Of a stretch of 64,000 nt of DNA, positions 21,282 to 46,246 are shown piece after piece. Both the position numbers and the translations under genes were made by a program. Within the stretch, counting starts at the first letter, position 1, and every line of letters begins with the position of its first letter. The notes beneath the pieces were generated by a model that saw nothing but the letters and a program-made list of their open reading frames with translations, was not told the DNA's origin and searched no databases. Source of the stretch: a virus; the IMG/VR virus record IMGVR_UViG_3300035180_002703, positions 10,465-74,464 of that record, one strand, 5' to 3'.

Positions 21282-21310
21282 TTGACATCGTGCGAACGGC
21301 ATGATATAAT
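21282..21310 (+). promoter_or_regulatory. sigma70 promoter
   Basis: TTGACA-17-TATAAT, extended TG. Confidence 0.9.
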
Positions 21311-21323
21311 ATACATAGTAGTA

Positions 21324-21358
21324 AACGATAAGCCGCCACCGTTCGCGGGGCGCACGTT
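21324..21358 (+). ncRNA. structured leader motif copy 1
   Basis: AACG AUAAGC CGCC A CCG(UUCG)CGG GGCG CA CGUU. Confidence 0.8.
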
Positions 21359-21372
21359 ATGGGGAGAGGGGT

Positions 21373-22170
21373 GTGGAGAAAGAGTACACGCAACAGTTGC
21401 TGGATCGCGCAGTGTGGAAACACCAGCGGTGGATGCGAGAGAAACGCTACGCGGCGCAGCGGCTCAATCTGTCAGACATTCAGCTGAACGGTCTCGATTT
21501 GTCGGGCCTTGACCTAAGCTACGCCATCTGCGTCAACACGACTTTCAACAAGTGCAACCTGAAGGGCGTGAACCTGATGTTGGGTGTTGCGGCGCAGGCC
21601 CGATTCCTGGAATCGAATCTGCGAGGGGCTGATCTCTCCCATTCTATGCTGTCGGAGGCCACCTTCTGGGCGAGCATCCTGTCGGAGTCCGACTTTGGCA
21701 GCGCGAATTGCTCGGGTGCATGTTTTGACGAAGTACTGCTTACCGGGGCGAGATTCAACAAGACCATCCTGTATGACGCAGTGTTCCGAAACGCTCACAA
21801 CGTGCCGGAATCCGCTCGGGCGTTCTCCCGCATCACTCCCGAAACCGGATCGTTCGAGATGTGGAAGAAATGCGACGGAGACGTGCTGGTGAGGCTTCTG
21901 GTTCCTGCGGATGCCCATCGGGAGAACGGGTGTTCGCGTCTACTGCGGGTCTCGAAAGCCGTTGTGCTGGAGATATTGGGGCCACACGGCGAAACGACGG
22001 TCAGAAACATGTCCGATCCAGATGTCGAGTACAAGGTCGGGGATGTTGTTACTCCGCGAGAAGGCTTCAACCCAGATTGGGAGAACGAGTATTCGGGAGG
22101 AATCCACGGATATCTGTCTCGCGCAGAGGCCGCATCACCAGGTATTTACAAGATCGATGTTGACGAATGA
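21373..22170 (+). CDS. pentapeptide repeat protein with DUF5758-like C-terminus
   Basis: A(D/N)LxX repeats, then WKKC...VRLLVPADA.R. Confidence 0.9.
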   Translation: MEKEYTQQLLDRAVWKHQRWMREKRYAAQRLNLSDIQLNGLDLSGLDLSYAICVNTTFNKCNLKGVNLMLGVAAQARFLESNLRGADLSHSMLSEATFWASILSESDFGSANCSGACFDEVLLTGARFNKTILYDAVFRNAHNVPESARAFSRITPETGSFEMWKKCDGDVLVRLLVPADAHRENGCSRLLRVSKAVVLEILGPHGETTVRNMSDPDVEYKVGDVVTPREGFNPDWENEYSGGIHGYLSRAEAASPGIYKIDVDE

Positions 22171-23884: not shown

Positions 23885-23922
23885 TGCCCCAGTAAGCCGC
23901 CACCTTAGGGGGCGCATGGGCA
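23885..23922 (+). ncRNA. structured leader motif copy 2
   Basis: CCCA GUAAGC CGCC A..GGCG CA UGGG. Confidence 0.8.
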
Positions 23923-23934
23923 AGGAGGGGTGGG

Positions 23935-24615
23935 ATGACGAATAAGATGTCGCAGGAGAAGCTGGATCGGATTCTGGATGCACACGAGGCATGGCTGGGG
24001 AGGAAACCTGGAGGCAGAAGGGCTAGGCTGTGCGGAAAGAACATGTCGGGGCTGAACTTCGCGGGCCGTACGCTGAGGCACATCATCTTGGCAGACGCCG
24101 AACTGCACGGTGCGAACCTGTCCGGGGCCGATCTCGACGCAGCGAATCTCAGTTGCGCGAACATGTGGAGGGTAAATGCAGAGCGAGCAACTTTCCGAGA
24201 GACGGACCTTTCTTGCGCCGATCTCTCAGGTGCGAGGCTGTTCGACGCCGATCTCGATACAGCGAATCTCAGTCACGCGAAGATGTGGGGTGCGAATGCG
24301 GAGCGGGCGGCTTTCCGAGAAGCGAACCTTTCTTGCGCCGATCTGCGGAAAGCGAACCTAGAAGGATCGGTGTTTACCCAGGCTAATCTGTCTGGAGCTC
24401 GCCTATCAGGTGCGCATATCGACGGCGCTAAGTGGACGGACGCCGTCATGGCGATTGCGGATGTTCGCGATGTGGCTCCGACCGAGGAATTCCTGGATGC
24501 TTTTTACGATTGGAAGATATGTGTAGACAGTGCATATACAACTTGCTGCCAGCGTTACGCAGTGGCGGTAGCCACCCAAACGAATGGCGCTGACGAAACG
24601 GAGGGGGAACAATGA
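23935..24615 (+). CDS. pentapeptide repeat protein
   Basis: ANLSGADL repeats. Confidence 0.9.
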   Translation: MTNKMSQEKLDRILDAHEAWLGRKPGGRRARLCGKNMSGLNFAGRTLRHIILADAELHGANLSGADLDAANLSCANMWRVNAERATFRETDLSCADLSGARLFDADLDTANLSHAKMWGANAERAAFREANLSCADLRKANLEGSVFTQANLSGARLSGAHIDGAKWTDAVMAIADVRDVAPTEEFLDAFYDWKICVDSAYTTCCQRYAVAVATQTNGADETEGEQ

Positions 24616-25193
24616 AGCGAATGACACAGAAGAAGCTGAACAAGATTCTGGATGCACACGAGGCGTGGCTTAGGATGGAGAAGAAAGGGAAGAGGGCCAT
24701 GCTTTGTGGAAAGAACATGTCCGGCTTGGACTTCTCGGGGCGAAAGCTGAGACACGCATGCATGGCGCATTCCGTTCTGATGTATGCGAACCTGCGGGGT
24801 GCGGATTTCTCAGATGCCATTCTGATCGACGCGATTATGCTAGGAGCCGACGCAGAGAATGCGGTGTTCTGGAACGCGCACCTAACATCTGCAAATTTGT
24901 TGGATGCGAACCTGCGGAATGCGGACTTCACTCAGGCGATCGTTGTGGGGATTCTTCTAACGGAGGCGAACACGAAGGGGGCGATCTGGGACGACGCTGT
25001 TCGGCAATACTGGAATAAGCCCATGTGGTACTGGGAAACCGAGTTCGGAGAGTCGAAACATGACACAAACGAAACGGAGGGGGACAATGAAGCGAATGAA
25101 GCCAATGACACAGAAGGAGCTGAACAAGGTTCTGGATGCACATCAAGCGTGGCTGAAACTGAGGAAGGGCGAGATGGCTGTCCTAGCCAGTAG
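24612..25193 (+). CDS. pentapeptide repeat protein
   Basis: ANLRGADF repeats; tail overlaps the next gene. Confidence 0.85.
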   Translation: MKRMTQKKLNKILDAHEAWLRMEKKGKRAMLCGKNMSGLDFSGRKLRHACMAHSVLMYANLRGADFSDAILIDAIMLGADAENAVFWNAHLTSANLLDANLRNADFTQAIVVGILLTEANTKGAIWDDAVRQYWNKPMWYWETEFGESKHDTNETEGDNEANEANDTEGAEQGSGCTSSVAETEEGRDGCPSQ

Positions 25194-25615: not shown

Positions 25616-25645
25616 TTGACAAACCCGAAGAAGACGGGATATAAT
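25616..25645 (+). promoter_or_regulatory. sigma70 promoter
   Basis: TTGACA-18-TATAAT. Confidence 0.8.
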
Positions 25646-25658
25646 ATGTACGTAGAAA

Positions 25659-25693
25659 GCCGATAAGACGCTACCTGTTACGGAGCGCGCGGG
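25659..25693 (+). ncRNA. structured leader motif copy 3
   Basis: CCG AUAAGA CGCU A..AGCG CG CGG. Confidence 0.8.
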
Positions 25694-25703
25694 CTGAGGG
25701 GGA

Positions 25704-26045
25704 ATGAGCATGAAGCGTGTGGTAAATGGCCTGCTGTACGATACCGACACTTCCCATTTGATTGCGGAGGGCTTGTCGAGAGACTATTGGGGAAGATCAG
25801 CATGGCAAGGCAGCCTGTATATCACGCCGAGGTCTCGCAGATGGTTCGTAGTGGGCCACGGCGATCCCGATAGCATCTTTTCGGGAATCCCAAATAACGA
25901 GGGGATTGTGCCAGTCGACTCCAAGTTTGTCGTGGACATGCTCGAATACGTTGAGGAAGACGTGTTCAACATACTGCTGAAGTACAAAAGCGATCTTGGA
26001 ATTCGCGATGCCGACGAAGTGCCAATTGGCACGGTCGGCTGCTAG
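25704..26045 (+). CDS. hypothetical protein, YDT paralog family
   Basis: VVNGLLYDT...LYITPRSRRWF. Confidence 0.75.
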   Translation: MSMKRVVNGLLYDTDTSHLIAEGLSRDYWGRSAWQGSLYITPRSRRWFVVGHGDPDSIFSGIPNNEGIVPVDSKFVVDMLEYVEEDVFNILLKYKSDLGIRDADEVPIGTVGC

Positions 26046-26466: not shown

Positions 26467-26495
26467 TTGACAAGCCGACTATCGTATGATATAAT
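26467..26495 (+). promoter_or_regulatory. sigma70 promoter
   Basis: TTGACA-17-TATAAT, extended TG. Confidence 0.9.
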
Positions 26496-26509
26496 ATGTA
26501 CATAGTCAA

Positions 26510-26540
26510 GCCGATAAGCCGCCAACAAGAGGCGCACGGC
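26510..26540 (+). ncRNA. structured leader motif copy 4
   Basis: GCCG AUAAGC CGCC AACAAGA GGCG CA CGGC. Confidence 0.8.
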
Positions 26541-26555
26541 GAAAGGAGAGGGAAC

Positions 26556-26864
26556 ATGAACAGCACCGAGGCTCCTATGACGCTCACCGCGCTGGCCGCC
26601 GATCAGGAGTGGAACCTGGTGGAGTCGCTCAAGGGCATCGCTGACGGGCAGCGTGTTCCAGAGACCATCGACACTCTGGTTCGTCTCGCCGAGGAGTATC
26701 AGAAGTCCGCTCGCGATAAGCTGGCCGAATCGGAAAGGCTGAAGAAGTATCCTGTATCGGCGCACTTCCTCGCTCACGAGAAGGAATGCGACGCGCTGGA
26801 TGACGCTCGGGTTGCCAAGGCGTACAACGACATGGTGGATAGGCTCACGAAGTACCTGCACTGA
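26556..26864 (+). CDS. hypothetical protein
   Basis: SD AAGGAG; LKGIA.GQ...ET..TL shared with 26974. Confidence 0.7.
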   Translation: MNSTEAPMTLTALAADQEWNLVESLKGIADGQRVPETIDTLVRLAEEYQKSARDKLAESERLKKYPVSAHFLAHEKECDALDDARVAKAYNDMVDRLTKYLH

Positions 26865-26865
26865 C

Positions 26866-26930
26866 TGCCGAAACCGGCTTTCGGGCCGGTCTGCACCGGG
26901 CGGCTCCCGGCGCACTGAAGAGGCAAGCCG
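26866..26930 (+). ncRNA. type II hammerhead ribozyme
   Basis: UGCC GAAA-stem III(UUCG)-GUC-stem I-CUGAAGA GGCA; loop I CGGCU complementary to 3' AGCCG. Confidence 0.92.
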
Positions 26931-26959
26931 ATAAGTCGCCACCTTAGGGGGCGCAACGG
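26927..26959 (+). ncRNA. structured leader motif copy 5
   Basis: CCG AUAAGU CGCC A..GGCG CAA CGG. Confidence 0.8.
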
Positions 26960-32291: not shown

Positions 32292-33663
32292 TCTGAATGA
32301 TCTGGTTGTGCAGGGAAACATTCGGCGTTTGACGTTTGCCGAACGGGGCGCGTTCGACATATTATTGGAGCAGTATATCACGCGCGGAGGCTCGCTGCCG
32401 TTGGACGTGGACGAATGTTGCGATTTGGCCTCGGCGCGAACTGAGGAGGATCGGGCGGTAGTGAAGTCGACGCTGTCGGCGGCGTTTCGTGCGACCGATG
32501 ATGGTTGGCGCAGCACCTGGGCCGATGGTCTCGCGGAGCGTGTCGGTCGGCGTTCGGACACCTATCGGGAGAATGCCGTGGCGCGTTGGTCGAAGTCGCG
32601 GAATGGCGTTGATATCGCTGATAATGCATGCAATAGCATCGGCGAAAATGCAATTGCAATGCAATTGCATCCGGAGAAATGCAATTGCATCGGCTCGAAC
32701 GGGATCGGACCGAAAATCGCATCTGATAGTGCTGATAATGGCGTTGATATCGCTGATAACTCATGCAATTGCATCGAATCACATGCAATTGGAATGCAAT
32801 TGCATCAGGCGGAATGCAATTGCAATGCAATAGCATCGGCGGGAATGCAATTGCATCAGGCGGAATGCAATTGCAATGCAATAGCATCAGATTGCATGAA
32901 TTCGCATGGAATCGCGTCGAAAAGCGTCCAAGATGGCGATGATGACGCTGTTTCTGACGTTCCCCCCCCTTATAACCCCCCTATATACAAAGACTCTATA
33001 CTAATACAAAGAGTCTTTGACTCTAAGAGACTCTCTACCTCTGAAGACTCTATATCTAACAAAGAGTCTTGTAAGACTCTAAAAGACTATAAAGACGAAG
33101 AGAGTCTTGGCGTTGAGAAGAGAGATTGTACGAATTACCACTCTTGCGCAAATCGCGTCGATTTTGCGCTTTTCGATGTCGAAAACGACGTTGAAGCACA
33201 GGGCGATGGCGTTGCGCAACCTGACGTCGCGAACAACGCCACGACGCTGGACCCGGGGCACGGTGGTAGTAGTCGCTCGAAAGGATGGACCGCGGAGGAA
33301 GTGAAGGAGAAACAGTTGCGTGGCTTCAACAGGTTCTGGGAACTTCAACCCCGAAAGGTCGATAAGGCTCGGTGCTGGGCATGGTGGCAGCGCAACGTTC
33401 GCGAACGCGGCATCGCTCCGGCTATCATCAACGGCTTCAAGGCATATCTCGCCACGTGCAATCCGGAGGATAACTTCAAGTACGCGAAGCGACCCATAAC
33501 CTGGCTCCGTGGTAGGTGCTGGGAGGACGAAGGGCTCGATCCTTCTGCTCTGGAGGCTGTTCTACCTGCTCGCGAACCCATCCGCGATCTCGGATTCGAG
33601 TATAGTGCAGAGAATCTCGAACGAACGCTCGGAATCTCGCTTCCACGCGCGAAAAGCGGCTAA
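32272..33663 (+). CDS. phage replication initiator (YdaU/DUF1376-like N-terminus)
   Basis: ERGAFDILLEQY, central repeats, FNRFWELQPRKVDK...TWLRGRCWED; upstream of DnaB. Confidence 0.8.
   Translation: MKRITLDLNDLVVQGNIRRLTFAERGAFDILLEQYITRGGSLPLDVDECCDLASARTEEDRAVVKSTLSAAFRATDDGWRSTWADGLAERVGRRSDTYRENAVARWSKSRNGVDIADNACNSIGENAIAMQLHPEKCNCIGSNGIGPKIASDSADNGVDIADNSCNCIESHAIGMQLHQAECNCNAIASAGMQLHQAECNCNAIASDCMNSHGIASKSVQDGDDDAVSDVPPPYNPPIYKDSILIQRVFDSKRLSTSEDSISNKESCKTLKDYKDEESLGVEKRDCTNYHSCANRVDFALFDVENDVEAQGDGVAQPDVANNATTLDPGHGGSSRSKGWTAEEVKEKQLRGFNRFWELQPRKVDKARCWAWWQRNVRERGIAPAIINGFKAYLATCNPEDNFKYAKRPITWLRGRCWEDEGLDPSALEAVLPAREPIRDLGFEYSAENLERTLGISLPRAKSG
32600..33110. repeat. iteron-like repeats, probable replication origin
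   Basis: Many TGCAATTGCA palindromes (32646-32880), then AT-rich AAGACTCT/AGAGTCTT repeats (32989-33108). Confidence 0.65.
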
Positions 33664-33767: not shown

Positions 33768-35153
33768 GTGAGTAACAACCGTCTGCCGCCGCAAAGTCTG
33801 GAAATGGAACAGGCAGTCTGCGGCGCTATGCTGATCGACCCGGAAGCGGTCTGGACGTGCGCATCCATTCTCCGACAAACGGACTTCTACCGAGTCGAAC
33901 ATGGTACCGTCTTCGCAGCAGTCATCGCCGTCGCGTCGCGCGGGCAGGCGGTCGACGTGCTCACAGTCCAAGAAGAGCTTCGCTCGGCAGGCAATCTCGA
34001 AACTTGCGGAGGCGCTCCTTATCTGGTTCACCTCACAGACTGTGTACCTTCTGCAGCTAACGCGGAATATTATGCTAAGGTCGTGGCGGAGAAAGCTACT
34101 CTGCGACGTATCTCGGACGCTGGCTCGCAGCTGCGTACGATGGTCTATGCGGATTACGACGAAATCGGCGATGTCTGCGATAAGGCGTTTCGTACGGTCA
34201 TGGACGCAGTTTCGCATCGTGATAGTCGCAACCCATCAGACGCTCGTACGCTGGTCGAAGAAATTCTCGCGGAAGTCGATAAATTGCGCGAAACTGGAGA
34301 AATTCCGGGCCTTTCTACCGGATTCGCTGATCTCGATACGGCAACGGCGGGGTTCTGCGGAGGTGAACTCGTTATCGTCGCAGGCGCTCCGTCTATGGGC
34401 AAATCGGCTTTCGCGCTCCAAATCGCTCGCCACGTCGCTCGCAAGCACGGGCCCGTCCTTATCGTCTCACTCGAAATGTCTGGACGGGAAATCATGCATC
34501 GACAACTTTCTATCGAATCTGGTATCGACCTGCTACGATTGCGACGCGGAATGGTCTCGAAGGAAGAGCGAGAAACGCTAGATAGAGTCGGAAAGACTCT
34601 CTGCTCGGAACCGGTGCTCATTCACGATCGCGGCGTCGATTCGCTCGGCGCAATCCGACAAGCAGTTCGACGAATGAGGCCGGAACCGGTTATGGTGCTC
34701 GTCGATTACCTGCAAATCATGCGAGTCGAACGTGTCACGGATAATCGGGCGCAGGACCTCGGCGCTATCTGCAGAGGCTTGAAACGTCTCGGCATGGATT
34801 ACGAAATGCCAGTGGTCCTATTGTCACAACTTTCACGCGAAATCGCAAGGCGAAACGATCGCAAACCGGTTATGTCTGATCTCCGAGACTCGGGCGCGAT
34901 AGAACAGGACGCGGATATCGTGCTCGGATTGTATCGCGAGAATTACTACAAGTCACAAGGCGTTGTAACGCGAGACTCGCCACCGGAGGAAGCGGAAATC
35001 CTGATCATGAAACAACGCAACGGGCCGCGCGGTTCGGTTCGCGTTATGTTTCGACCGGCTACGGCGCAGTGGGCGTCTGGAATGTTTGGCGCGCGTGCTG
35101 ACGCATACACGCGATATGATCAGACGCCAAACGATGAAGACTATACCGACTAG
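33768..35153 (+). CDS. dnaB: replicative DNA helicase
   Basis: PPQSLEMEQ, GAPSMGKS, SLEMS, VDYLQ, LSQLSR, DLRDSGAIEQDAD, KQRNGP. Confidence 0.95.
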   Translation: MSNNRLPPQSLEMEQAVCGAMLIDPEAVWTCASILRQTDFYRVEHGTVFAAVIAVASRGQAVDVLTVQEELRSAGNLETCGGAPYLVHLTDCVPSAANAEYYAKVVAEKATLRRISDAGSQLRTMVYADYDEIGDVCDKAFRTVMDAVSHRDSRNPSDARTLVEEILAEVDKLRETGEIPGLSTGFADLDTATAGFCGGELVIVAGAPSMGKSAFALQIARHVARKHGPVLIVSLEMSGREIMHRQLSIESGIDLLRLRRGMVSKEERETLDRVGKTLCSEPVLIHDRGVDSLGAIRQAVRRMRPEPVMVLVDYLQIMRVERVTDNRAQDLGAICRGLKRLGMDYEMPVVLLSQLSREIARRNDRKPVMSDLRDSGAIEQDADIVLGLYRENYYKSQGVVTRDSPPEEAEILIMKQRNGPRGSVRVMFRPATAQWASGMFGARADAYTRYDQTPNDEDYTD

Positions 35154-35164
35154 GAGGGGAAGTT

Positions 35165-35503
35165 ATGCAGGTACCGGAACTCTTCACGATCGCGCGCGAA
35201 GCGGGCGTGCGCGTTCGCTTGATGGATGGGCGGATCGTGTTCGGGCCGCGCGCGGCGTTCGAAGCTCTACCGGCGCATGTTCAAGATGGTCTGCGTGCAG
35301 CGAAAGCGATCTTTGCATTACACGTGGACGAAACCGGAGAGGTGACTGGCTATCGGCAGTGGGGGCCGTGCGACGACACGGCGCATCCGGAAGGTCTCGG
35401 GCGTTGTGCAGTCTGTTGGCGGATAGTTCACAATGATGGCGTTTGTCGCATAGGCGATAACGGGGAATTCACGATCACTCACTCGGCTTGTTCTGGTACA
35501 TAG
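35165..35503 (+). CDS. hypothetical protein
   Basis: SD AGGAGG. Confidence 0.6.
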   Translation: MQVPELFTIAREAGVRVRLMDGRIVFGPRAAFEALPAHVQDGLRAAKAIFALHVDETGEVTGYRQWGPCDDTAHPEGLGRCAVCWRIVHNDGVCRIGDNGEFTITHSACSGT

Positions 35504-35616
35504 ATGGTAACGTTTTGGTCAATTTCAGGCTGTTTGGTAAGGCTTTGGTAAGGCGATGGTCAAGTCCTGGTAAGTTTGGTAAGGCTTTGGTAAGCTTCTG
35601 GTAAGGCTTTGGTACC
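35494..35616. repeat. 11-bp-phased TGGTAAG array
   Basis: TGGT at 35494, 35505, 35516, 35535, 35546, 35557, 35568, 35577, 35588, 35599, 35610. Confidence 0.85.
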
Positions 35617-35701
35617 ATCCTCGTGCTGTTTCTCCTTGTACTATCCTCAACGTCCGATAATGTGCTTTACGCCATTCGAGAAACTTTTTTTCGAAGTGGG
35701 C

Positions 35702-35730
35702 TTGACAAGCTCGGGCCGTTATGGTAGTAT
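35702..35730 (+). promoter_or_regulatory. sigma70 promoter
   Basis: TTGACA-17-TAGTAT, extended TG. Confidence 0.75.
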
Positions 35731-35771
35731 ATATTCATAACAAGGCGAAAGACGGAAGGGGGGCGAGGGGA

Positions 35772-36005
35772 ATGTGTTCAGTCGATGTAGAGGCGTTGCG
35801 GGATACCGTGAAGTGGCTTCGGGGGAGAAGTGAAGATCATCTTGTAGTAGCTCGGAACTGGGATAACGACGTCGCATACTATAGCGCTAAGCCGGGCTAC
35901 CGAGAAGAGGTTCAGGTGTATGCGGCGTTTCGGGATTCGTTTCGCAAGCGATCGGCGGAGGTGTTGGAGATCGCGGAGATGGTCGAGAAAGCGATACTAC
36001 CATGA
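35772..36005 (+). CDS. hypothetical protein
   Basis: SD, helical. Confidence 0.6.
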   Translation: MCSVDVEALRDTVKWLRGRSEDHLVVARNWDNDVAYYSAKPGYREEVQVYAAFRDSFRKRSAEVLEIAEMVEKAILP

Positions 36006-36022
36006 TGGAAGGAGGCAGGGGA

Positions 36023-36247
36023 ATGTCAGATGTGTTGCGTACGAGGCTGTTGGTAGGGAAACTGCGCGAGATTGGAACCGGTCTGCGAGAAAGCCAGGAG
36101 AAGTGTCCTGACAAGACGAACGCGATTGGTTGGGGTGATCGGGCGGATGGCGTGGAGGCTTTTGCTGACGCTCTGTCTAAGGCGCTGGACTCACACGCGC
36201 GATATGATGTGGAAACGGCGTTTGAGATTGTGTTTGGCGCGCGATAG
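36023..36247 (+). CDS. hypothetical protein
   Basis: SD AAGGAGG. Confidence 0.6.
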   Translation: MSDVLRTRLLVGKLREIGTGLRESQEKCPDKTNAIGWGDRADGVEAFADALSKALDSHARYDVETAFEIVFGAR

Positions 36248-36250
36248 AAA

Positions 36251-36313
36251 GCCGAAACCGGTCTTCGGGCCGGTCTATGCAGGACGGCTACCTGCATACT
36301 GAAGAGGCAAGCT
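36251..36313 (+). ncRNA. type II hammerhead ribozyme
   Basis: GCC GAAA-CCGGUC(UUCG)GGCCGG-UC-UAUGCAGG(loop)CCUGCAUA-CUGAAGA GGC. Confidence 0.92.
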
Positions 36314-36314
36314 T

Positions 36315-36347
36315 CTGCATAAGTCGGCACCTTCGGGGCCGCGGCAG
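36315..36347 (+). ncRNA. structured leader motif copy 6
   Basis: CUGC AUAAGU CGGC A CC(UUCG)GG GCCG CG GCAG. Confidence 0.8.
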
Positions 36348-36360
36348 GTTGGAGGTAGAT

Positions 36361-36669
36361 ATGACGTCGCAGGAGGAGTCTCGGGTGCGCCGTGTTCTGT
36401 CGGATTTATACTATGCTAGCAGTGAGGGGGAAGGACTGGCGAAGCAGTGGGAAGAGTGGGCACATGAGGCCGAAACTAATCAGAACAAGTGGATATCTGC
36501 TGAAGCGAAGGCGAAGAAGGCAGAATACTGCAGGAAGATTGCGGGGGTTCATGCTATGACTGCGATGCATTTGGGCGGTATTGCGGATGCTATTGCGGGT
36601 GCTATCAACGCTGGTGCGCTTGACGCGCTGGAAGACATATTCGGCGCGGTTTACGGGGTTCGGGATTAG
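36361..36669 (+). CDS. hypothetical protein
   Basis: SD GGAGG. Confidence 0.65.
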   Translation: MTSQEESRVRRVLSDLYYASSEGEGLAKQWEEWAHEAETNQNKWISAEAKAKKAEYCRKIAGVHAMTAMHLGGIADAIAGAINAGALDALEDIFGAVYGVRD

Positions 36670-36686
36670 CTTTGGCGTTGTGCTAG

Positions 36687-36719
36687 GCGCATAAGTCGGC
36701 ACCTATCGGGCCGCGGCGC
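36687..36719 (+). ncRNA. structured leader motif copy 7
   Basis: GCGC AUAAGU CGGC A..GCCG CG GCGC. Confidence 0.8.
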
Positions 36720-36735
36720 ATGGAGGGGCGAAGGA

Positions 36736-36990
36736 ATGTCTAAGGCGGAGCGGTTGCGGGGGCTAGTGTCGAAGTTGTACGAGATGGCGGATGGTGCGGG
36801 CGTTCGCGCGGCTTATAATCAAAGCTTGGCGAATAGGGAGCGGGAGTCTGAAGTGTGGGTTGCGCCGGAGTCGCGCGCGGCATTGGTCGCTATGTACCGG
36901 GCTCAAGCTGACGCTGCGGCGAATAGGAAGCTGGAGCTAGCATGGCTTGCTAATCAGGTCGAGCAGATACTGGATCAGGAGGGGGAATGA
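36736..36990 (+). CDS. hypothetical protein
   Basis: SD, helical. Confidence 0.65.
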   Translation: MSKAERLRGLVSKLYEMADGAGVRAAYNQSLANRERESEVWVAPESRAALVAMYRAQADAAANRKLELAWLANQVEQILDQEGE

Positions 36991-37289
36991 TGGATATCGA
37001 ACTGCTTCGAGTGATCGTTCAGGAACTGCGGGCCCGGGCCGCGAAACTGCAGGAAGAGGCGGGCGCATGGGCGGAGGATATGCAGAACATGGAGGCGAAG
37101 GCCGAAGCGAGTCCGGCGTTTCGCGAGGAATACTTGGAGAGTGCACGCGTGTCGAAGATATTCGCTAATGCAGGAAAGGCGCACGCGAAAGAACTGTCGG
37201 AGTTGGCGGAGCTGATCGATTCTGCCACGAACGGTTTCGCGGGCAAGGCGTTGTGCACGGCAATCGAGAGCGCGGCGCGGGCGCGCTAG
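36987..37289 (+). CDS. hypothetical protein
   Basis: ATGA coupling. Confidence 0.65.
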   Translation: MMDIELLRVIVQELRARAAKLQEEAGAWAEDMQNMEAKAEASPAFREEYLESARVSKIFANAGKAHAKELSELAELIDSATNGFAGKALCTAIESAARAR

Positions 37290-37302
37290 AAGGAGGGGAG
37301 CG

Positions 37303-37854
37303 ATGGATTTCGATAGGGTCGAAGGGGTTGCGTCGGAGTTGGAGTTCCGGGCGCGAGAGTATCGCAGACTCTCTCAGGAGGCCGCGGAGGCCGCGGAGAG
37401 GGCCGAGAAGTCGGACGGTTGGCAGACTCCTGAAGACAAGGCGCGCGAGGTGGTTCTGCACAAGGCGCGCGCGGAGTTGTACACCATGCGGGCGAGTGAG
37501 ATGGAGGATATGTCTCGGCGGTTGTACGACGCGTTGTATCCTGCCGAGGAGAAGGGCTGTCCGTCGTCGAAGAACTTCGACAGTCTCCGATTTGTCATGG
37601 CGGATATGTGGCATCGCGTGCAGGAATATCGCGATAACTCGCCGGAAATGCTGGCAGTTATCGTTCGGGCGGAGCAGGCGGATTGTTGGAAGACTGCGGA
37701 GGCCAAGGCGCGCGGGTGTGCATACTACGGGGAGTATGCGAAGGGATACAAGGACTGGGCGCGGGAGCTTGAGGATTTGGAATACGATTTGCGATATGGG
37801 CTGTTTCCTGAAGAGTACGAGCAGGAAGAGGAAGAGGAGAAGGAGGGGGAATAA
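37303..37854 (+). CDS. hypothetical acidic protein
   Basis: SD AAGGAGG; Glu-rich tail. Confidence 0.7.
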   Translation: MDFDRVEGVASELEFRAREYRRLSQEAAEAAERAEKSDGWQTPEDKAREVVLHKARAELYTMRASEMEDMSRRLYDALYPAEEKGCPSSKNFDSLRFVMADMWHRVQEYRDNSPEMLAVIVRAEQADCWKTAEAKARGCAYYGEYAKGYKDWARELEDLEYDLRYGLFPEEYEQEEEEEKEGE

Positions 37855-38132
37855 TGGACGCGAATCTGTTTTCGAAGTTCGTCTGCATGGTCAACGACCG
37901 CAAGGATGGTAAGACGTTCGGCGCGGATTTGAGGCTCAGGCCGAGTGGTCGTTTTATCCTCGTCGCTGACGAAGTCGAAGTCGCGAAGGCGCTGGGGCGG
38001 GAATACTACGACTGCGACCCGCGGAGGACTGCCATTGTCGAGATCAGCGTTCGCGATGCGTTCGCGATGATGGCGCGTGACTGTGACGAAGAGACTCTTG
38101 CGCACTATGCCCGCGTGTTGGCGCGGGCATAG
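37854..38132 (+). CDS. hypothetical protein, paralog of 38148
   Basis: FG.DLRL.P.GRF.LV...A.ALGR. Confidence 0.7.
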   Translation: MDANLFSKFVCMVNDRKDGKTFGADLRLRPSGRFILVADEVEVAKALGREYYDCDPRRTAIVEISVRDAFAMMARDCDEETLAHYARVLARA

Positions 38133-38147
38133 GAAGGAGGCGGAGGA

Positions 38148-38450
38148 ATGTCTGCAAAGTCGCGTTCGACGGGGTACCGAGAAGAGCGGTCGGAACATGT
38201 CTGCGTTCTCAGTACGCTATCGTACCATAATCCGTTTGGGCCGGAATTGCGGATAATGCCAGATGGCAGGTTCTTCATGGTCGGAAACGCGGGCGAGATC
38301 GCTGACGCGTTGGGACGGGATACCTGCGAAGGCAGTCGGTGGGCTAGCGTCGTTGTGTCGATCACGGCGCGCGAGGCGTTCGAACTACTGACGCGCGAAG
38401 GTGATTCGGAAACGTTGTCGCGCTATGCGTTCGCGCTAGCTGGCATGTAG
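38148..38450 (+). CDS. hypothetical protein, paralog of 37854
   Basis: FGPELRIMPDGRFFMV. Confidence 0.7.
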   Translation: MSAKSRSTGYREERSEHVCVLSTLSYHNPFGPELRIMPDGRFFMVGNAGEIADALGRDTCEGSRWASVVVSITAREAFELLTREGDSETLSRYAFALAGM

Positions 38451-38474
38451 GGAAACATACCAGGCAACGAACAC

Positions 38475-38503
38475 TTGACAAGTCTTTGCGGGCGTGATAT
38501 AAT
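38475..38503 (+). promoter_or_regulatory. sigma70 promoter
   Basis: TTGACA-17-TATAAT, extended TG. Confidence 0.9.
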
Positions 38504-38526
38504 ATGTGTGTTGGTGAACGGGAGGG

Positions 38527-38557
38527 GCCGGTAAGTCGCCACTACGGGGCGCGCGGT
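38527..38557 (+). ncRNA. structured leader motif copy 8
   Basis: GCCG GUAAGU CGCC A C(UACG)G GGCG CG CGGU. Confidence 0.8.
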
Positions 38558-38570
38558 TCGGAGGTGTTCG

Positions 38571-38954
38571 ATGGACGCGAAGGGGCTGGCGGTTCGTGTG
38601 AACGCGTTGCAGTGGCGAATCTGGAAGGGCGTCGGGGTCGAAGTGTCTTATGATGACGCTTACCGATTGCGAGGGGCGGCGGAGAGTCTGCGCCGGTGGT
38701 ATCGCATGGAATACGGAAACGGGCGCGGTCAGGTAACGCGCGATAAGTCTGGCAGGTCGGTTTTCGTCGATTGCGTTACGACTAAGGCGAAACCGGTTCC
38801 AGATCGTGAGGCGGTGGCGTTGCGTGAGGTTATGGAGGTATGCGCAAGGTGCGGTTTGGCATACCGAACGAGCCACGATTTCCGTGGTTCGGTCTTGTTC
38901 GTGTTCTCTCAGTCGGATACTACTGCGCATCCGAAGGCGGTCGCGTGCGAATGA
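38571..38954 (+). CDS. hypothetical protein, paralog of 40732
   Basis: DDA..LR.AA..LRRWY..E.G. Confidence 0.7.
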   Translation: MDAKGLAVRVNALQWRIWKGVGVEVSYDDAYRLRGAAESLRRWYRMEYGNGRGQVTRDKSGRSVFVDCVTTKAKPVPDREAVALREVMEVCARCGLAYRTSHDFRGSVLFVFSQSDTTAHPKAVACE

Positions 38955-39532
38955 GACCGCGAACCGATTGGGCGCAGATCGCGCCGAAACACTGGGACCG
39001 TGTCAGCGTCGGCATGGCGAACGCTGTGCTGCGCGTGGCGCGCGTGGTACATGGCGCGCGGAATGACCTCGAAACATGGATAACGTCAAGCGCCGTACCT
39101 GTGCGGGGCGAGTGGATGGGGGAGCATCCGAAGTTGGAGGATATCGCCGAAGGGCTTTCCGTTGTCGAGGATTTGCCGTTCGTGTCTCAGTATGATGGGC
39201 GATTCCACTACTACCAGGACATTCGAGAAGGGATTTTCTCGTGTCGCGTGTCCGAGCCCGTTCATGGCGGAGCTGTCGAAACGATCATAGAAACTGGTGC
39301 GGGTTGGTCCGCGCTTGCGGGGATGGTCGATTCCGAGGGGTTCTGCGAGGTTCGCGGAAACATGGAGAAGGCGGATTCCTACTGGTACGAGGCGTGGGCG
39401 GCGATAGGTTTGACGGCACCTATGGGGCCGGTTATGAAACATGGAGAGGGAGAGTGTCTGCGGTGGTTCAAGCGCGGATACGGGCATTATGCCGGGCCCA
39501 TTCAGCTGTCGTTACTCTTGGAGGCGGTCTGA
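38951..39532 (+). CDS. hypothetical protein with C-terminal QLSLL
   Basis: ATGA coupling; distantly like the AW.RAW family. Confidence 0.65.
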   Translation: MRPRTDWAQIAPKHWDRVSVGMANAVLRVARVVHGARNDLETWITSSAVPVRGEWMGEHPKLEDIAEGLSVVEDLPFVSQYDGRFHYYQDIREGIFSCRVSEPVHGGAVETIIETGAGWSALAGMVDSEGFCEVRGNMEKADSYWYEAWAAIGLTAPMGPVMKHGEGECLRWFKRGYGHYAGPIQLSLLLEAV

Positions 39533-39559: not shown

Positions 39560-39588
39560 TTGACAAGCTCTGTCGAGTGTGATATAAT
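39560..39588 (+). promoter_or_regulatory. sigma70 promoter
   Basis: TTGACA-17-TATAAT, extended TG. Confidence 0.9.
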
Positions 39589-39609
39589 ATGTGTGCAGTT
39601 GGACGGGGG

Positions 39610-39648
39610 GCCGATAAGTCGCCATTGCCAGTCTGGCAGGCGCGCGGT
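39610..39648 (+). ncRNA. structured leader motif copy 9
   Basis: GCCG AUAAGU CGCC AU UGCCA..UGGCA GGCG CG CGGU. Confidence 0.8.
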
Positions 39649-39656
39649 TCGGAGGA

Positions 39657-40334
39657 ATGAAGATGGACGCGGAGCAGGTTTGGGCGGCGTTGCCGGTGCG
39701 TTTGAAGAATGTGGCGCTTGCCATGGCCCGTGAGTATAATCACGGGTGGGCCGCGTCGTCTGCAGTACCGCCGGCGGGCGAATACTGGGAGTTTCCGGAG
39801 GAGGTCCCGTCGTTGGATCAGATCAAGGCGGGAACTCCTGAAGGACCGCGCGGGCGTGGTATCGCCGGCCCGTGCGTGTCGGGAGCTGACGGATTCTTGT
39901 ACATTACTCATGGCTCGGCCACGGGCAGGCTGCTCATTATCGTTCGGTATTCGGAGCAGGAGGGCGAGCGGTATACCGTGCGCATCGCTCGTCCGAACGG
40001 GAGGAACGCGCAGGGAACATACTGCGTGGATCAGCAGCAGTATGCCGGGAGCGCGGAGGCTACCGCGTGGGGCCCGCGGCATTTTGCCGCGTGGCATCGC
40101 GCGTGGGGAGTGCTTGGCCTTTCTCCGGCGTTCCCGGAACTCGCGCGAGAGTGGGAGTTCGACTTGACGGAGGAAGGAATCCCGAATGACGGGCGGTTGG
40201 AGTTTGCGACCGTTCACCTGCGGGCGGGAGCCCGTCCGCGGGCGGAGGACTTGTATGATTGTCTTCGCATCGCTGACGCAGTCTATGTTCACGGGGCGAA
40301 CGGAGGAGTCGCCCGGATAGTTGCGCAGGACTGA
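39657..40334 (+). CDS. hypothetical protein, AW.RAW paralog family
   Basis: VWAALP...AREY...HFAAWHRAW. Confidence 0.75.
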   Translation: MKMDAEQVWAALPVRLKNVALAMAREYNHGWAASSAVPPAGEYWEFPEEVPSLDQIKAGTPEGPRGRGIAGPCVSGADGFLYITHGSATGRLLIIVRYSEQEGERYTVRIARPNGRNAQGTYCVDQQQYAGSAEATAWGPRHFAAWHRAWGVLGLSPAFPELAREWEFDLTEEGIPNDGRLEFATVHLRAGARPRAEDLYDCLRIADAVYVHGANGGVARIVAQD

Positions 40335-40638: not shown

Positions 40639-40667
40639 TTGACAGGTTCGGCGGCGCATGGTAGTAT
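40639..40667 (+). promoter_or_regulatory. sigma70 promoter
   Basis: TTGACA-17-TAGTAT, extended TG. Confidence 0.75.
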
Positions 40668-40679
40668 ATATGCATAACT

Positions 40680-40718
40680 ACCGATAAGTCGTCACTACCG
40701 AGAGGCAGGGCGCGCGGT
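40680..40718 (+). ncRNA. structured leader motif copy 10
   Basis: ACCG AUAAGU CGUC A..GAGA loop..GGCG CG CGGU. Confidence 0.8.
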
Positions 40719-40731
40719 GCGGAGGGGTGAC

Positions 40732-41106
40732 ATGGACGCATACGATAAGACCGAACTCGTTCGGTTGCGGATTCTCGCCGGGTGCGGTGTCAAGCTTGCC
40801 TTTGATGATGCGCAGACTCTGCGCCGGGCCGCGCGAACGCTTCGCCGCTGGTACGAGGCGGAATGTGGGGATGCATCGGGCGTCGTTTTCCGCGGGCCGG
40901 GCGGTAAGCCGTTCCGCGAGTCTTATACGGGCGCGTCTGTTCCCGTACGCGATATGGAGTCTGGCGCGGTCCGCCGCGTGCAGGAGGTTTGTACGCGGTA
41001 TGGGCTAAGCTATAAGCTGAACACGGACCCGCGCGGCGGCGTGCTATATGTTACGTCTCCCGCGTTGTCGTTAGATTATTCGTTCGGTGTGCCCGTCGAC
41101 GTTTGA
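40732..41106 (+). CDS. hypothetical protein, paralog of 38571
   Basis: DDAQTLRRAARTLRRWYEAECG...DPRG. Confidence 0.75.
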   Translation: MDAYDKTELVRLRILAGCGVKLAFDDAQTLRRAARTLRRWYEAECGDASGVVFRGPGGKPFRESYTGASVPVRDMESGAVRRVQEVCTRYGLSYKLNTDPRGGVLYVTSPALSLDYSFGVPVDV

Positions 41107-41138: not shown

Positions 41139-41176
41139 CGCCGGTAAGGCGCTAACGCGAAGGCGGGCGCGCGGCG
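41139..41176 (+). ncRNA. structured leader motif copy 11
   Basis: CGCCG GUAAGG CGCU AA..GGCG CG CGGCG. Confidence 0.8.
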
Positions 41177-41189
41177 CAGGAGGGATTCG

Positions 41190-41594
41190 ATGGATTCTCA
41201 TGAGGTGTGGGCGGCGCTTCCGGAGCATGTGCGCGAAGTGGCGCAACGCATCGCGCGCGAATACGGGCCGAATGTCTCTCTTTCCGAGTCGGCGTTCGAG
41301 TGTTGCGGCGGGTTGTGTTGGGGATACCGCGGGTATGACGGGGCCCGATTCTATATCGCGATACTCTGGACCGAGGATAGGGGGTTGCGGTGCTTCGTTG
41401 GGGTCGACGGATACCTGCCGCATATCGCATATGGTTCGTGTTCGCTGACGGACGGGAAACTGCTTGAGCATCATGCAGACTCGGGAGAGTGGCAGGACCG
41501 TCACTATGCGGCGTGGCGTCGCGCGTGGGGCGCAGTCGGGTTGTCTGTGCCGTTTCCGGGAGCGGCGCAGGAGGTTCGCTATGATTGTCTGTGA
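41190..41594 (+). CDS. hypothetical protein, AW.RAW paralog family
   Basis: VWAALPEHV...HYAAWRRAWG. Confidence 0.75.
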   Translation: MDSHEVWAALPEHVREVAQRIAREYGPNVSLSESAFECCGGLCWGYRGYDGARFYIAILWTEDRGLRCFVGVDGYLPHIAYGSCSLTDGKLLEHHADSGEWQDRHYAAWRRAWGAVGLSVPFPGAAQEVRYDCL

Positions 41595-42263: not shown

Positions 42264-42292
42264 TTGACTCGGCGCGCGCGGCGTGGTATTAT
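42264..42292 (+). promoter_or_regulatory. sigma70 promoter
   Basis: TTGACT-17-TATTAT, extended TG. Confidence 0.75.
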
Positions 42293-42303
42293 CTATGCAT
42301 AAC

Positions 42304-42342
42304 AACCGGTAAGGCGCTATCGCAAAGGCGAGGCGCGCGGTT
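42304..42342 (+). ncRNA. structured leader motif copy 12
   Basis: AACCG GUAAGG CGCU A UCGC(AAAG)GCGA GGCG CG CGGUU. Confidence 0.8.
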
Positions 42343-42349
42343 CGGAGGA

Positions 42350-42739
42350 ATGAAAATGGACGCTCTGCAGCAGGTTCGCGAAGCATGGGCCGGTCTGCCG
42401 TACCTGGTGAAGGCGCGCGCGGGCGCGGTGGCGGCAGTGTTCAACGTCGACGAGCCTTCTGACTATGCGTTTGTCGGTTCAGACGGTGCCTATGGCTGGT
42501 CGTGTGCGGTAGTTCCGAGCGGGCTTTCTGTTCTCATTCGTTCCCGGGCGTCCGGTATGCTCCTGGTCGTTACTGTGTACAACGAGGAAGGGCAGGCTAT
42601 CACGGCGTCGATCGGAGAGGACATGTTCGAAACTACAACGATCGGTACGGAGTGGGGGCCGCGGCAAGCGGCGCTTTGGAATCAGGTTTGGGCGGTTCTC
42701 GGATACCGTATGCCGTTTCCTGTTCCCGTGAAGTGCTAG
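42350..42739 (+). CDS. hypothetical protein, AW.RAW paralog family
   Basis: AWAGLP...WGPRQAALWNQVW..LG...PFP. Confidence 0.7.
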   Translation: MKMDALQQVREAWAGLPYLVKARAGAVAAVFNVDEPSDYAFVGSDGAYGWSCAVVPSGLSVLIRSRASGMLLVVTVYNEEGQAITASIGEDMFETTTIGTEWGPRQAALWNQVWAVLGYRMPFPVPVKC

Positions 42740-42785
42740 GCGTGCAAGGGCCGGGCGGGGCGCAAGCTCCGCTCGGCTTGCAGGT

Positions 42786-42825
42786 CGCCGGTAAGTCGCT
42801 AACGCCGGAAGGCGGGCGCGCGGCG
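42786..42825 (+). ncRNA. structured leader motif copy 13
   Basis: CGCCG GUAAGU CGCU AA CGCC(GGAA)GGCG GGCG CG CGGCG. Confidence 0.8.
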
Positions 42826-42838
42826 CAGGAGGAATGAC

Positions 42839-43018
42839 ATGGCCGGTTTCGTTGTCTGCTACATGCCGTCGGCGCAGTCGGCAGGTTCGGCGGAGCAGGT
42901 TCGGCGCGTGCAGGTTCGCGCGCAGGATACCCGGGCGCAGGACCGGGCGCGGGCGGTGCAGCGGGCGCAGGCGCGGCGTGCGAAGCTCTTCGAGCGGGCC
43001 GCCGAGTCTGTCGAGTAG
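42839..43018 (+). CDS. 59-aa Arg/Ala/Gln-rich peptide
   Basis: SD GGAGGA 5 nt before ATG 42839; absent from the ORF track. Confidence 0.5.
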   Translation: MAGFVVCYMPSAQSAGSAEQVRRVQVRAQDTRAQDRARAVQRAQARRAKLFERAAESVE

Positions 43019-43019
43019 T

Positions 43020-46000
43020 TCGGCAGGGCGGGAGGTTTCGACGGCGCAGGGGCTTGCCGTCGAAGATCGGGCGGGGCGCGCGAACGCTCCGCCCATTCTT
43101 TCGCGTGTCGTACATAGGCGGGCGCGTGTCGCAGGTACCTGCGGGCGGTTCCGTGCGTCTCCGGGCATCCTGGAGCGGTTGCGGGGCGTTCTAGCGGGCG
43201 CGTTCGCGTGCAGTCTGCAGGATAGGCGGCGCAGGTACCCGGCGGGCGCAGGTACCCGGCGGGCGCAGGTACCCGGCGGCGCAGTCTGTCGGAGATCCGG
43301 CGGGCGCAGGTACCCGGGCGGCGCTTACCCGGCGGCACTACCCGGCGGCACTACCCGGCGGGCGCAGGTTTCGGCGGGTTCCGTACCCGGGCGGCGCTTA
43401 CCTGTTCGCGTATCCGTTCACTACCTGCGGGCGTCGCTTCTACCCGTACCCGTTCTGCTACCCGTTCCGTACCCGTGCGGCGCGTGTCCGTCCATCCTGG
43501 AGCGAAAGCGGCGCATTCTGGCAGGTACCCGGCGGCACTACCCGGGCGCAGGTACCCGGCGGCGTACCCGTTCACTACCTGCGGGCAGGTACCCGGGCGG
43601 CTACCCGGCGGCTACCCGTTCCGTACCTGCGGGCGGAGCTTCTACCCGGGCGGAGCTTCTACCCGGGCGGGCAGGTACCCGGTGGACGCGTTCGCGCGCG
43701 TTCTACCCGTCGACCGGCTACCCGTTCGCGTGCAGGATACCCGGGCGGCGCTTACCCGGCCCATAGGCGGCGCTTACCCGGGCGGGCCCATAGGCGGGCG
43801 GCTACCTGCTACCTGCTACCCGGGCGGAGCTTCTACCCGTTGCCATTCGGCGGCGCTTCTACCCGGCCCATAGGCGGCCCATAGGCGGCGCTTACCTGCT
43901 ACCCGGGCGGCTACCTGCTCTGCTACCCGGCCCATAGGCGGCAGGTACCCGGGCGGCAGGTACCCGGGCGGCTTGCCGTACCACGGCGGGCGGGTCCATA
44001 GGCGGGCGGGTTCCGCAGGTTCCGTACCCGGCGGCGCTTGCCGTACCCGTTGCCGTACCTGCTACCCGGGCGGCAGGATAGGCGGGCGGGCCCATAGGCG
44101 GGCGGGTTCGGCGGCGTACCTGCTACCTGCTACCTGCTACCCGTTGCCGTACCCGGCGGCGCTTGCCGTACCTGCTACCCGGGCGGCGCTTCTACCTGTT
44201 CGCTCGTACCTGCTACCCGTACCCGTGCGGCAGGTTCCGTGCTCGTGCAGGTACCCGGGCGGCGCTTACTGCTACCCGTTGCCGTACCCGGCGGCGTGTT
44301 CGGCTCGTGCTACCCGTACCCGTTACCCGTGCAGGTTCGGCGGCAGGTACCTGCTCTGCTACCCGGCTTCTACCCGGCTTCGGCTTCGGCGCGCGGCTTC
44401 ACCTTCTACCCGGCTTCATGGCGCTTACCTGCTACCCGTACCCGTGCAGTCTTCTGCTACCCGGCTTCTGCTCGTGCAGGTTCGGCAGGTTCGCGATACC
44501 CGGCGGCTTCTACCCGTCGACCGTCTACCTGCTACGGCGTCTTTGCCGTACCTGCTCTGCTACCCGTACCCGGTGCGGCGGCTTCGTACCCGTGCAGGTT
44601 CGCGCGCGGCTTCTACTCGGCGGCTTTCGGCGGCTTCTACCCGTCGACCGTCTACCTGTTCGGCGGATTTGCCGTACCCGTACCCGTACCCGTACCCGTA
44701 CCCGTGCAGGTTCGGCGGCGGCTTCTACCCGGCTTCACCTTCTACCCGGCTTCTGCTACCCGGCTTCGTACCCGTGCGGCTTCGCGGTATCCTGCGGCTT
44801 CTACCCGGCTTCTTCTCGGCTTTGGACGGCTTCGCGGCGGCTTCTACGGAGCTTACCTGCTACCTGCTTCGCGGCGGCTTCACCTTCGCGGCTTCTCGGA
44901 GGATACGGCGGCTTTCTGCTACCCGGTGCGGCTTTCTGCTACCCGGCTTCACCTTCTCGGCTTCACCTTCTCGGCTTTCTGCTACCCGTGCGGCTTCGGC
45001 TTCACCTTCTCGGCGGCTTCTACCCGGCTTCTCGGAGGATACGGCGCTTACCCGTTACCCGTGCAGGTTCGGCGGCTTCGGCGGTCTTCGGCTTCTACCC
45101 GGCTTCTGCTACCCGTGCGGCTTCGCGGGTTCGGCTTCGGCGGCTTCTGCTACCTGCTTCGCGGCGGCTTCTACCTGCTACGCGGCTTCGCGGCTTCTGC
45201 TACCCGGCTTCTACCTGCTACCCGGCTTCTACCTGCTACGCGGCTTCTACGGCGCTTCTACGGCTTCGGCGGCGCTTACCTGCTACCCGTACCCGGTGGA
45301 CGCCTTCGCCTTCTCGGCGGCTTCTACGCGGCTTCTACTGCTACCCGTGCGGCTTCGCCTTCGGCTTCGGCGGCGGCTTCTGCTACCTGCTACCTGCTCT
45401 GCTACCCGGCTTCGGAGTGATACCCGGCTTCGGAGTGTTTCGGAGGATACGGCGCTTACCTGCTACGCGGCGGCTTCGCGGGTTCGGCTTCTTCGCCTAC
45501 TCGGCGGCTTCGTACCCGTGCGGCTTCTACCTGCTACCCGGCTTCTCGGCTTTCGGCGGCTTCCATGGCGCTTACCTGCTACCTGCTACCTGCTACCTGC
45601 TATCTGCTACCTGCTACCTGCTATCTGCTACCTGCTACCTGCTACCTGCTACCTGCTATCTGCTACCTGCTACCTGCTACCTGCTACCCGGCTTCTTCTC
45701 GGCTTCTCGGCGGCTTCGGAGTGTTTCGGAGTGCTACCCGGCTTCGGCGGCTTCGGTCGCAGGTATGGGCGCAAGCATGGGCGCAGGTATGGGCGCGGCT
45801 TCTGCTACCTGCTACCCGGCGGCTTTGGACGGCTTCGCTTGTGCTACCCGTACCCGATACCTGCGCCATACCCGGCGGCTTCGCGGCTTTGGACGGCTTC
45901 GGAGTGTTTCGGAGGATATGGCGGCTTCGCGGCTTCTGCTACCCGGCTTCTACCCGGCTTCTATGCGGCGGCTTCTGCTACCTGCTACCCGGTTTCTATG

Positions 46001-46090
46001 CGGGTTCGGGTTCGGGTTCGGCTTCTACCCGGCTTCTGCTACTCGGCGGATTCGGAGTGTTTCGGAGTGTTTCGGAGGATTATCGGCAGG
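43020..46090. repeat. ~3 kb low-complexity mosaic of short words
   Basis: Built from CTACCCGG, CGGCTTC, TACCTGC, GCAGGT, TACCCG; tandem TACCTGC run at ~45573-45688. Confidence 0.9.
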
Positions 46091-46116
46091 TTCGCGCGAA
46101 TTTTCGCATACGAGGC

Positions 46117-46146
46117 TTGACAGTTTCGCGGGTTATTATCTATAAC
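46117..46146 (+). promoter_or_regulatory. probable sigma70 promoter
   Basis: TTGACA-18-TATAAC. Confidence 0.55.
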
Positions 46147-46246
46147 ACGGCGAATCTGCTGGTACGCCGTGTCCGTGCGCCGTAGCTTATCGGCGCGTAT
46201 GATATAGGCGGAAGGTCGTACTACTTGCGGTCTTCCGCCATTCTTT
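46145..46246 (+). ncRNA. candidate small RNA complementary to the leader motif
   Basis: Three consecutive inverted repeats, the last terminator-like; middle segment CCGUGCGCC-GUA-GCUUAUCGGC. Confidence 0.55.

Follow-up and report, generated by a model that had tools for sequence, protein, structure and literature searches.

The 64-kb stretch of DNA analysed here (the window) was taken from a 74.5-kb IMG/VR virus record (bases 10465-74464), whose completeness CheckV puts at 67%. Its terminase large subunit, portal, tail protein and DnaB-type helicase genes identify it as part of a tailed dsDNA phage, and it also encodes pentapeptide-repeat proteins. Almost every gene is on the + strand. The early/replication region, between ~19 and 43 kb, consists mostly of small genes without known function; eight sigma-70 promoters within it come close to perfect (TTGAC(A/T/G)-N17/18-TATAAT) and include an extended -10 element. 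A blastn comparison of positions 35000-39000 with the INPHARED phages returned no matches. The six sequencing runs that contain the stretch are all of DNA, with no RNA run among them, and come from metagenomes of sediment, microbial mat or hot spring. Repeats are also visible at two places, as a cluster of ATGCAATTGCA within a putative replication-initiator gene (32600-32900), iteron-like in appearance, and, upstream of the terminase genes (43200-46100, + strand), as 3 kb of short words (CTACCTG, CCCGTA, GGCTTC and others) arrayed with strand asymmetry.

Within the early region, an ORF of 81 amino acids without a family match (36002..36247, + strand) ends with the stop codon TAG at 36245-36247, 2 nt before a type II hammerhead ribozyme at 36250..36313 (+), here called HH2, which was recognized from its sequence, an Rfam alignment, covariation and a clade-specific model (R2). 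It is followed by a structured leader (copy 6, 36315..36347, +), a Shine-Dalgarno sequence GGAGG 3 nt 3' of the leader (36351..36355, +) and a second ORF without a family match (102 amino acids, 36361..36669, +, with its ATG at 36361). From 5' to 3' on the + strand, HH2 comprises one side of a 3-bp stem II (GCC/GGC, 36251-53/36306-08), GAAA (36254-57), a 7-bp stem III with a UUCG loop (36257-63/36268-74), the GUC triplet (36273-75) whose last base, C36275, corresponds to C17, an 8-bp stem I (UAUGCAGG/CCUGCAUA, 36276-83/36291-98) with the 7-nt loop ACGGCUA, and CUGAAGA (36299-305). Stems I and III are loop-closed and stem II is open, which is the type II permutation, and the core contains the CUGANGA, GAAA and NUH cleavage triplet required of type II hammerheads. 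Loop-I nucleotides GGCU (36286-89) can pair with the tail AGCU (36310-13, +) in a 4-bp pseudoknot of three Watson-Crick pairs and one G.U pair, which places it marginally at the expected minimum of four. The pseudoknot is required for fast hammerhead cleavage and type II examples are active in vivo (PMC3088659, PMC8782182), although cutting a 6-bp pseudoknot to 4 bp slowed cleavage ~20-fold (Perreault et al., PMC3088659).

A related type II hammerhead, HH1, lies 9384 nt upstream (26866..26933, +; detected with RF02276 and R2) with predicted cleavage 3' of C26891. The preliminary description had presented HH2 and its leader as a second cassette, 9.4 kb from the first, in which stem I was rewritten while the core and loop were kept, with predicted cleavage after C36275 and a leader copy a few nucleotides downstream. 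All of these features are present in the sequence. The stem I of HH2 differs from that of HH1 (UGCACCGGG/CCCGGCGCA, with one A.C mismatch) at four pairs with pairing retained, the core and loop GGCU are unchanged, cleavage is predicted 3' of C36275 of the GUC triplet, and leader copy 6 starts one nucleotide after the HH2 tail.

The Rfam type II model (RF02276) aligns to HH2 from end to end with 31.0 bits, below the gathering cut-off of 37 that HH1 exceeds with 38.7 bits; the corresponding E-values for HH2 are 1.2e-4 locally, 0.011 in a 28-kb scan and 7e-6 per genome. The covariance model R2 was built from eleven hammerheads on other contigs, with the window sequences left out, and when run over the whole 64-kb window with filters off it returned only two matches, HH1 with 72.7 bits and HH2 with 66.8 bits (rough E 2e-15 for HH2). 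Minimum free energy (MFE) folding of the 116-nt HH2 cassette did not recover stem II; stem II was likewise missed for HH1, and MFE z-scores were weak for both hammerhead-leader cassettes. With a stem II of only 3 bp, such folding says little about a hammerhead. Across 12 aligned hammerheads of the clade, 95.7% of the cells pair, and both sides change in seven of the nine stem I pairs. The pseudoknot covaries as well, with GGCU:AGCC replaced by GGUU:AACC and alignment columns 40/63 switching from C-G to U-A. Selection therefore acts in this clade on the fold of the ribozyme and on its tertiary contact. All clade hammerheads are on the coding strand and start mostly 0-3 nt after a stop codon.

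The low RF02276 score raises the question of whether HH2 is a decaying copy, slow or inactive and kept by descent only. Its pseudoknot is the weakest among the clade copies, two unpaired A's widen its loop I, and decay does occur in the clade: one hammerhead, G004_a (L019:4413-4481), reads CCGAUGA instead of CUGAUGA, a change of core U4 to C that its orthologues in G006 and L044 do not share, and is possibly an inactivated copy. However, every invariant core position of HH2 is intact, its stem I is fully paired despite the four pair differences from HH1, it scores highly against the clade model and G003_b and the metagenome contig L043 have retained the stem I type of HH2. We consider decay improbable. 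HH2 is confirmed, at the level of sequence, as a genuine-looking type II hammerhead and a further member of a known family, for which self-cleavage is predicted.

The leader has the form P1 - RUAAGN - P2 - bulged A - P3 - P2' - CR - P1', with a Shine-Dalgarno sequence and start codon a few nucleotides on. In copy 6 these elements are P1 CUGC/GCAG, the internal loop AUAAGU / CG, P2 CGGC/GCCG, the bulged A36329 and P3 CC-UUCG-GG, and both P1 and P2 are compensatory relative to other copies. In an alignment of the 13 window copies and three from relatives, 91.9% of the cells pair and eight of the ten pairs change on both sides, with slid and shuffled controls nowhere near these values. In the window, a covariance model of the clade leader (R1) recovered exactly these 13 copies, which all occupy the + strand from 21.3 to 42.8 kb, and scored copy 6, which is in its seed, at 42.2 bits (36314-36365). 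An Rfam scan of 18.5-46.5 kb (E<=1) assigned the leader to no known family. A role as a DNA-level operator was rejected because several G.U pairs fit the + strand RNA only.

Promoters precede seven of the 13 window leaders, hammerheads two, and neither four, such that the ribozyme is absent from 11. The leaders that follow a promoter are copy 1 (21323..21376), which lies 13 nt after the promoter at 21282-21310 (TTGACA-17-TATAAT), copy 3 (25658..25711; promoter 25616-25645), copy 4 (26509..26559; 26467-26495), copy 8 (38526..38575; 38475-38503), copy 9 (39609..39666; 39560-39588), copy 10 (40679..40736; near-consensus promoter 40639-40667, TTGACA-17-TAGTAT) and copy 12 (42304..42359; 42264-42292, TTGACT-17-TATTAT), all on the + strand. 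Promoter-to-leader spacing is 12-23 nt in these seven copies, which places the leader 5-16 nt from the predicted transcription start. Copy 5 (26928..26959, +) is 3' of HH1 and is followed by an ATG at 26974; like copy 6, it thus has a hammerhead ahead. Neither a promoter nor a ribozyme accompanies copy 2 (23887..23938, +; ~3 nt after a stop codon), copy 7 (36686..36737, +), copy 11 (41139..41193, +) or copy 13 (42786..42842, +), and the Rfam scan (E<=1, 18.5-46.5 kb) found no other ribozyme before these four. The orthologue of copy 2 in contig L046 has a hammerhead ahead.

Ahead of some leaders that lack both promoter and ribozyme stand long hairpins, rich in GC and with no U tract. Copy 13 follows such a 12-bp hairpin with a GCAA loop (42740-42785), and in L020, just upstream of G005:23716, a hairpin GCCCGCC...GGCGGGC stands before the leader. 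These hairpins could be nuclease processing sites and thereby a third generator of 5' ends.

Further observations concern the leader itself. The 11-nt GNRA tetraloop receptor has the sequence CCUAAG/UAUGG. The internal loop of the leader, U-A-A-G opposite C-R (36319-36324/36342-36343 in copy 6, and present in all 13 copies), presumably resembles the AA-platform half of this receptor. The P3 loops of many leaders in relatives are GNRA tetraloops (GAGA, GCAA, GAAA). Downstream of the early region, positions 46118-46245 (+ strand) contain a TTGACA-18-TATAAC promoter, a short RNA and a terminator-like hairpin at its end. Within this RNA (~46140-46245), CCGUGCGCC matches the 3' arm of leader copy 4 in exact reverse complement and GCUUAUCGGC the 5' arm, which marks the RNA as a candidate anti-leader small RNA; a search for a counterpart in the fragmentary relatives found none and returned only the leader reverse complement. 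The leader motif also occurs in contigs of uncultured Clostridia/Eubacteriales metagenome-assembled genomes (MAGs) with AT-rich flanks (L049:4368-4425(-), L049:3750-3805(-) and L050:3269-3319(+)), where the layout is unchanged and P2 covaries (CCCG/CGGG); one of these copies has a phage integrase and a protein with an LPD25 domain as neighbours. The motif therefore extends far beyond the phage clade. No type II hammerhead was found in the two leader-bearing Clostridia-type MAGs.

The juxtaposition of hammerhead and leader was followed in six close relatives, five obtained by an exact-pattern leader scan of IMG/VR and one through a search with a conserved 615-amino acid protein. They share up to ~90% amino acid identity with the window in some genes (tblastx), with a mosaic early region, and a search of viral contigs with the DnaB-like helicase found no relatives. 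Whole-record searches with RF02276 and R1 found both hammerhead and leader in all six, and neither in 13 more distant records or in the chance-match record G001. Over the seven related viral records, the hammerhead adjoins a leader in 10 of 11 instances, the two model matches either overlapping by up to 5 nt or lying no more than ~12 nt apart, and a metagenome scan added four contigs with hammerhead-leader junctions; the junction pattern had no matches in genome contigs. The junctions cover three stem I types, several variants of the leader and no fewer than four unrelated genes downstream, and the order is always stop codon, ribozyme, leader, Shine-Dalgarno sequence. Upstream of 18 leaders in relatives there is a terminator plus promoter in nine cases, a hammerhead in seven and a GC-rich hairpin in two. 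The exception to adjacency is G003_b, the closest relative of HH2 by stem I, where an intrinsic terminator and a promoter stand, in that order, between ribozyme and leader; L043 is arranged in the same way. Several other candidates were discarded as leader carriers: L005 and L006, recovered with the pattern CTGAWGAGNCAAGC...RTAAGNCG, were chance matches in coding sequence only, and L007/G001 and L048 were chance or weak pattern matches without supporting hammerhead or leader copies.

This recurrence bears on the proposal in the preliminary description that ribozyme and leader form a selected expression module. The predicted linkage was found in relatives and recurs there, whereas the notion of an inseparable unit did not survive, since most window leaders are ribozyme-free and L003/L004, L046 and G003_b each separate the parts. 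We therefore regard the idea as partly supported: the linkage is real and recurrent, yet the pair is divisible. An alternative that takes this divisibility further is that the ribozyme is active but its leader neighbourhood is a by-product, hammerheads having inserted or recombined into gaps between genes that leaders already filled and the conserved ribozyme and leader sequences serving mainly as homology points for mosaic module exchange. Part of the adjacency must indeed come from position alone, because the leader fills the gap before the ribosome-binding site (RBS) of many early genes. In L046, a hammerhead stands before a leader and pentapeptide gene 92% identical to window 23886-24618, and the homology to the window begins exactly at the leader, upstream of which the window has a different gene and no ribozyme. 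One and the same hammerhead type can have different flanking genes: type B is found with two genes on its upstream side and at least three leader-gene modules on its downstream side. In the unrelated phage contigs L003/L004, seven related type II hammerheads each stand directly before AGGAG and a start codon with the leader absent, and the leader copies of the Clostridia-type MAG contigs are hammerhead-free. The viral contig L004 has five type II hammerheads within 2 kb (L004:3432-5462, +), each between short genes.

Against this by-product explanation, the clade has no hammerhead directly before an RBS without a leader, and the ribozyme always precedes the leader, never the reverse. Moreover, leaders stand at ~13 of ~40 early + strand gene starts by a rough count, and it is unlikely by chance that seven combinations of hammerhead type and downstream gene would all fall on leaders. 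We consider it rather unlikely that the neighbourhood is merely a by-product, while giving this explanation more weight than decay of HH2.

A more intimate connection was also considered, in which the hammerhead tail competes with leader P1 for pairing and a leader-binding factor controls cleavage. The HH1 pseudoknot tail AGCCG (26926-30) overlaps leader P1 by three nucleotides, in favour of such a switch. In HH2, however, the tail (36310-13) ends before P1 (36315-18) begins. Among the cassettes as a whole, the overlap amounts to 0-3 nt and stem II lies 4-11 nt from P1. The competition is therefore not conserved, and a conserved tail/P1 switch was rejected; of the explanations considered, this is the one to which we attach the least probability.

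We think it fairly probable that HH2 is functional, cutting polycistronic early mRNA immediately ahead of a shared 5' UTR and insulating this UTR in a manner analogous to the synthetic element RiboJ. We predict that HH2 folds during transcription and cuts itself 3' of C36275 in the early/replication transcript. Hammerhead cleavage in general leaves a 2',3'-cyclic phosphate and a 5'-OH. The upstream message would keep its stop codon, the cut lying 28 nt after it, and would end in the stable stem III hairpin with a 2',3'-cyclic phosphate, while the downstream message would begin with a 5'-OH and the stem I hairpin, followed by the intact leader, the Shine-Dalgarno sequence and the gene. The leader would act as a separate, clade-wide 5' UTR element that usually stands behind a source of 5' ends, either a sigma-70 promoter, often with a terminator first, or a hammerhead. 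Because the leader is usually placed in this way, the ribozyme may serve to free the leader and RBS from upstream RNA and from ribosomes ending the previous gene. Cleavage would also uncouple the decay of upstream and downstream messages, with possible effects on stability and translation. As predicted transcription starts otherwise lie 5-16 nt from the leader, it is plausible that internal genes obtain from the ribozyme a 5' UTR that resembles one made by a promoter and is free of context. Distance from a promoter is not the reason for the ribozyme, since HH1 belongs to a short operon headed by the promoter at 26467-26495 and is only ~400 nt from it. The four window leaders without a nearby 5'-end generator count against this explanation, and the terminator that follows the HH2-like ribozyme in G003/L043 hints that the ribozyme also serves the upstream message at its 3' end, which may be equally important.

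A broader proposal, which we regard as possible but doubtful, is that promoters and hammerheads are interchangeable 5'-end generators for a single structured leader regulon. With hammerheads as a natural insulator of the RiboJ type, all early genes, both promoter-proximal and internal, would then present one leader to a common regulator, either a protein or the candidate anti-leader RNA, and the leader itself would be an old 5' UTR motif of mobile elements shared with those of Clostridia.

Type II hammerheads are known to lie between genes of phages and prophages, and processing of polycistronic phage RNA between cistrons has been proposed as the function of those in prophages (Perreault et al. 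2011, PMC3088659); for HH2, too, this is the most economical interpretation. Like the members of RF02276 (PMC3088659), HH2 has the same core and the permuted topology with an open stem II and a pseudoknot between loop I and the 3' tail, and it shares their intergenic, coding-strand position in phages with more than one copy per genome. It differs in falling below the family cut-off, in belonging to a close-knit subgroup, particular to the clade, in which stem II and the base of stem III do not vary, and in being coupled to a structured leader rather than standing directly before the RBS. Ribozyme-punctuated phage operons similarly have clustered hammerheads between cistrons, where they presumably cut long transcripts into gene-length mRNAs (PMC3088659, PMC6765202), whereas here the ribozymes alternate with sigma-70 promoters before one covarying 5' UTR hairpin. 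This alternation before a shared leader suggests that the downstream 5' UTR context is what matters. The ribozyme-punctuated phage operon itself is already known; hammerheads and promoters alternating before one covarying leader are a variation on it.

The role of phage hammerheads has been an open question since 2011 (PMC3088659, PMC6765202), and a 2019 review still described it as unresolved (PMC6765202). The clade described here provides a natural comparison, with the same covarying leader behind a promoter, a ribozyme or neither, sometimes at orthologous genes, and such a comparison could therefore tell whether hammerheads act on the downstream 5' UTR, on the upstream 3' end or have no effect.

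The closest functional parallel is RiboJ, a synthetic insulator in which a hammerhead and a 23-nt hairpin precede the RBS (PMC7536230). The order of parts, hammerhead, hairpin and RBS, is the same. The proposed likeness to RiboJ, whose cut removes the upstream RNA context, is one of function and not of membership. RiboJ is an engineered combination of a type III hammerhead from satellite RNA with an arbitrary hairpin, whereas the phage arrangement is natural and type II, and its hairpin has a conserved internal loop and also occurs ribozyme-free. For synthetic biology, the phage arrangement would supply a natural equivalent of ribozyme insulators.
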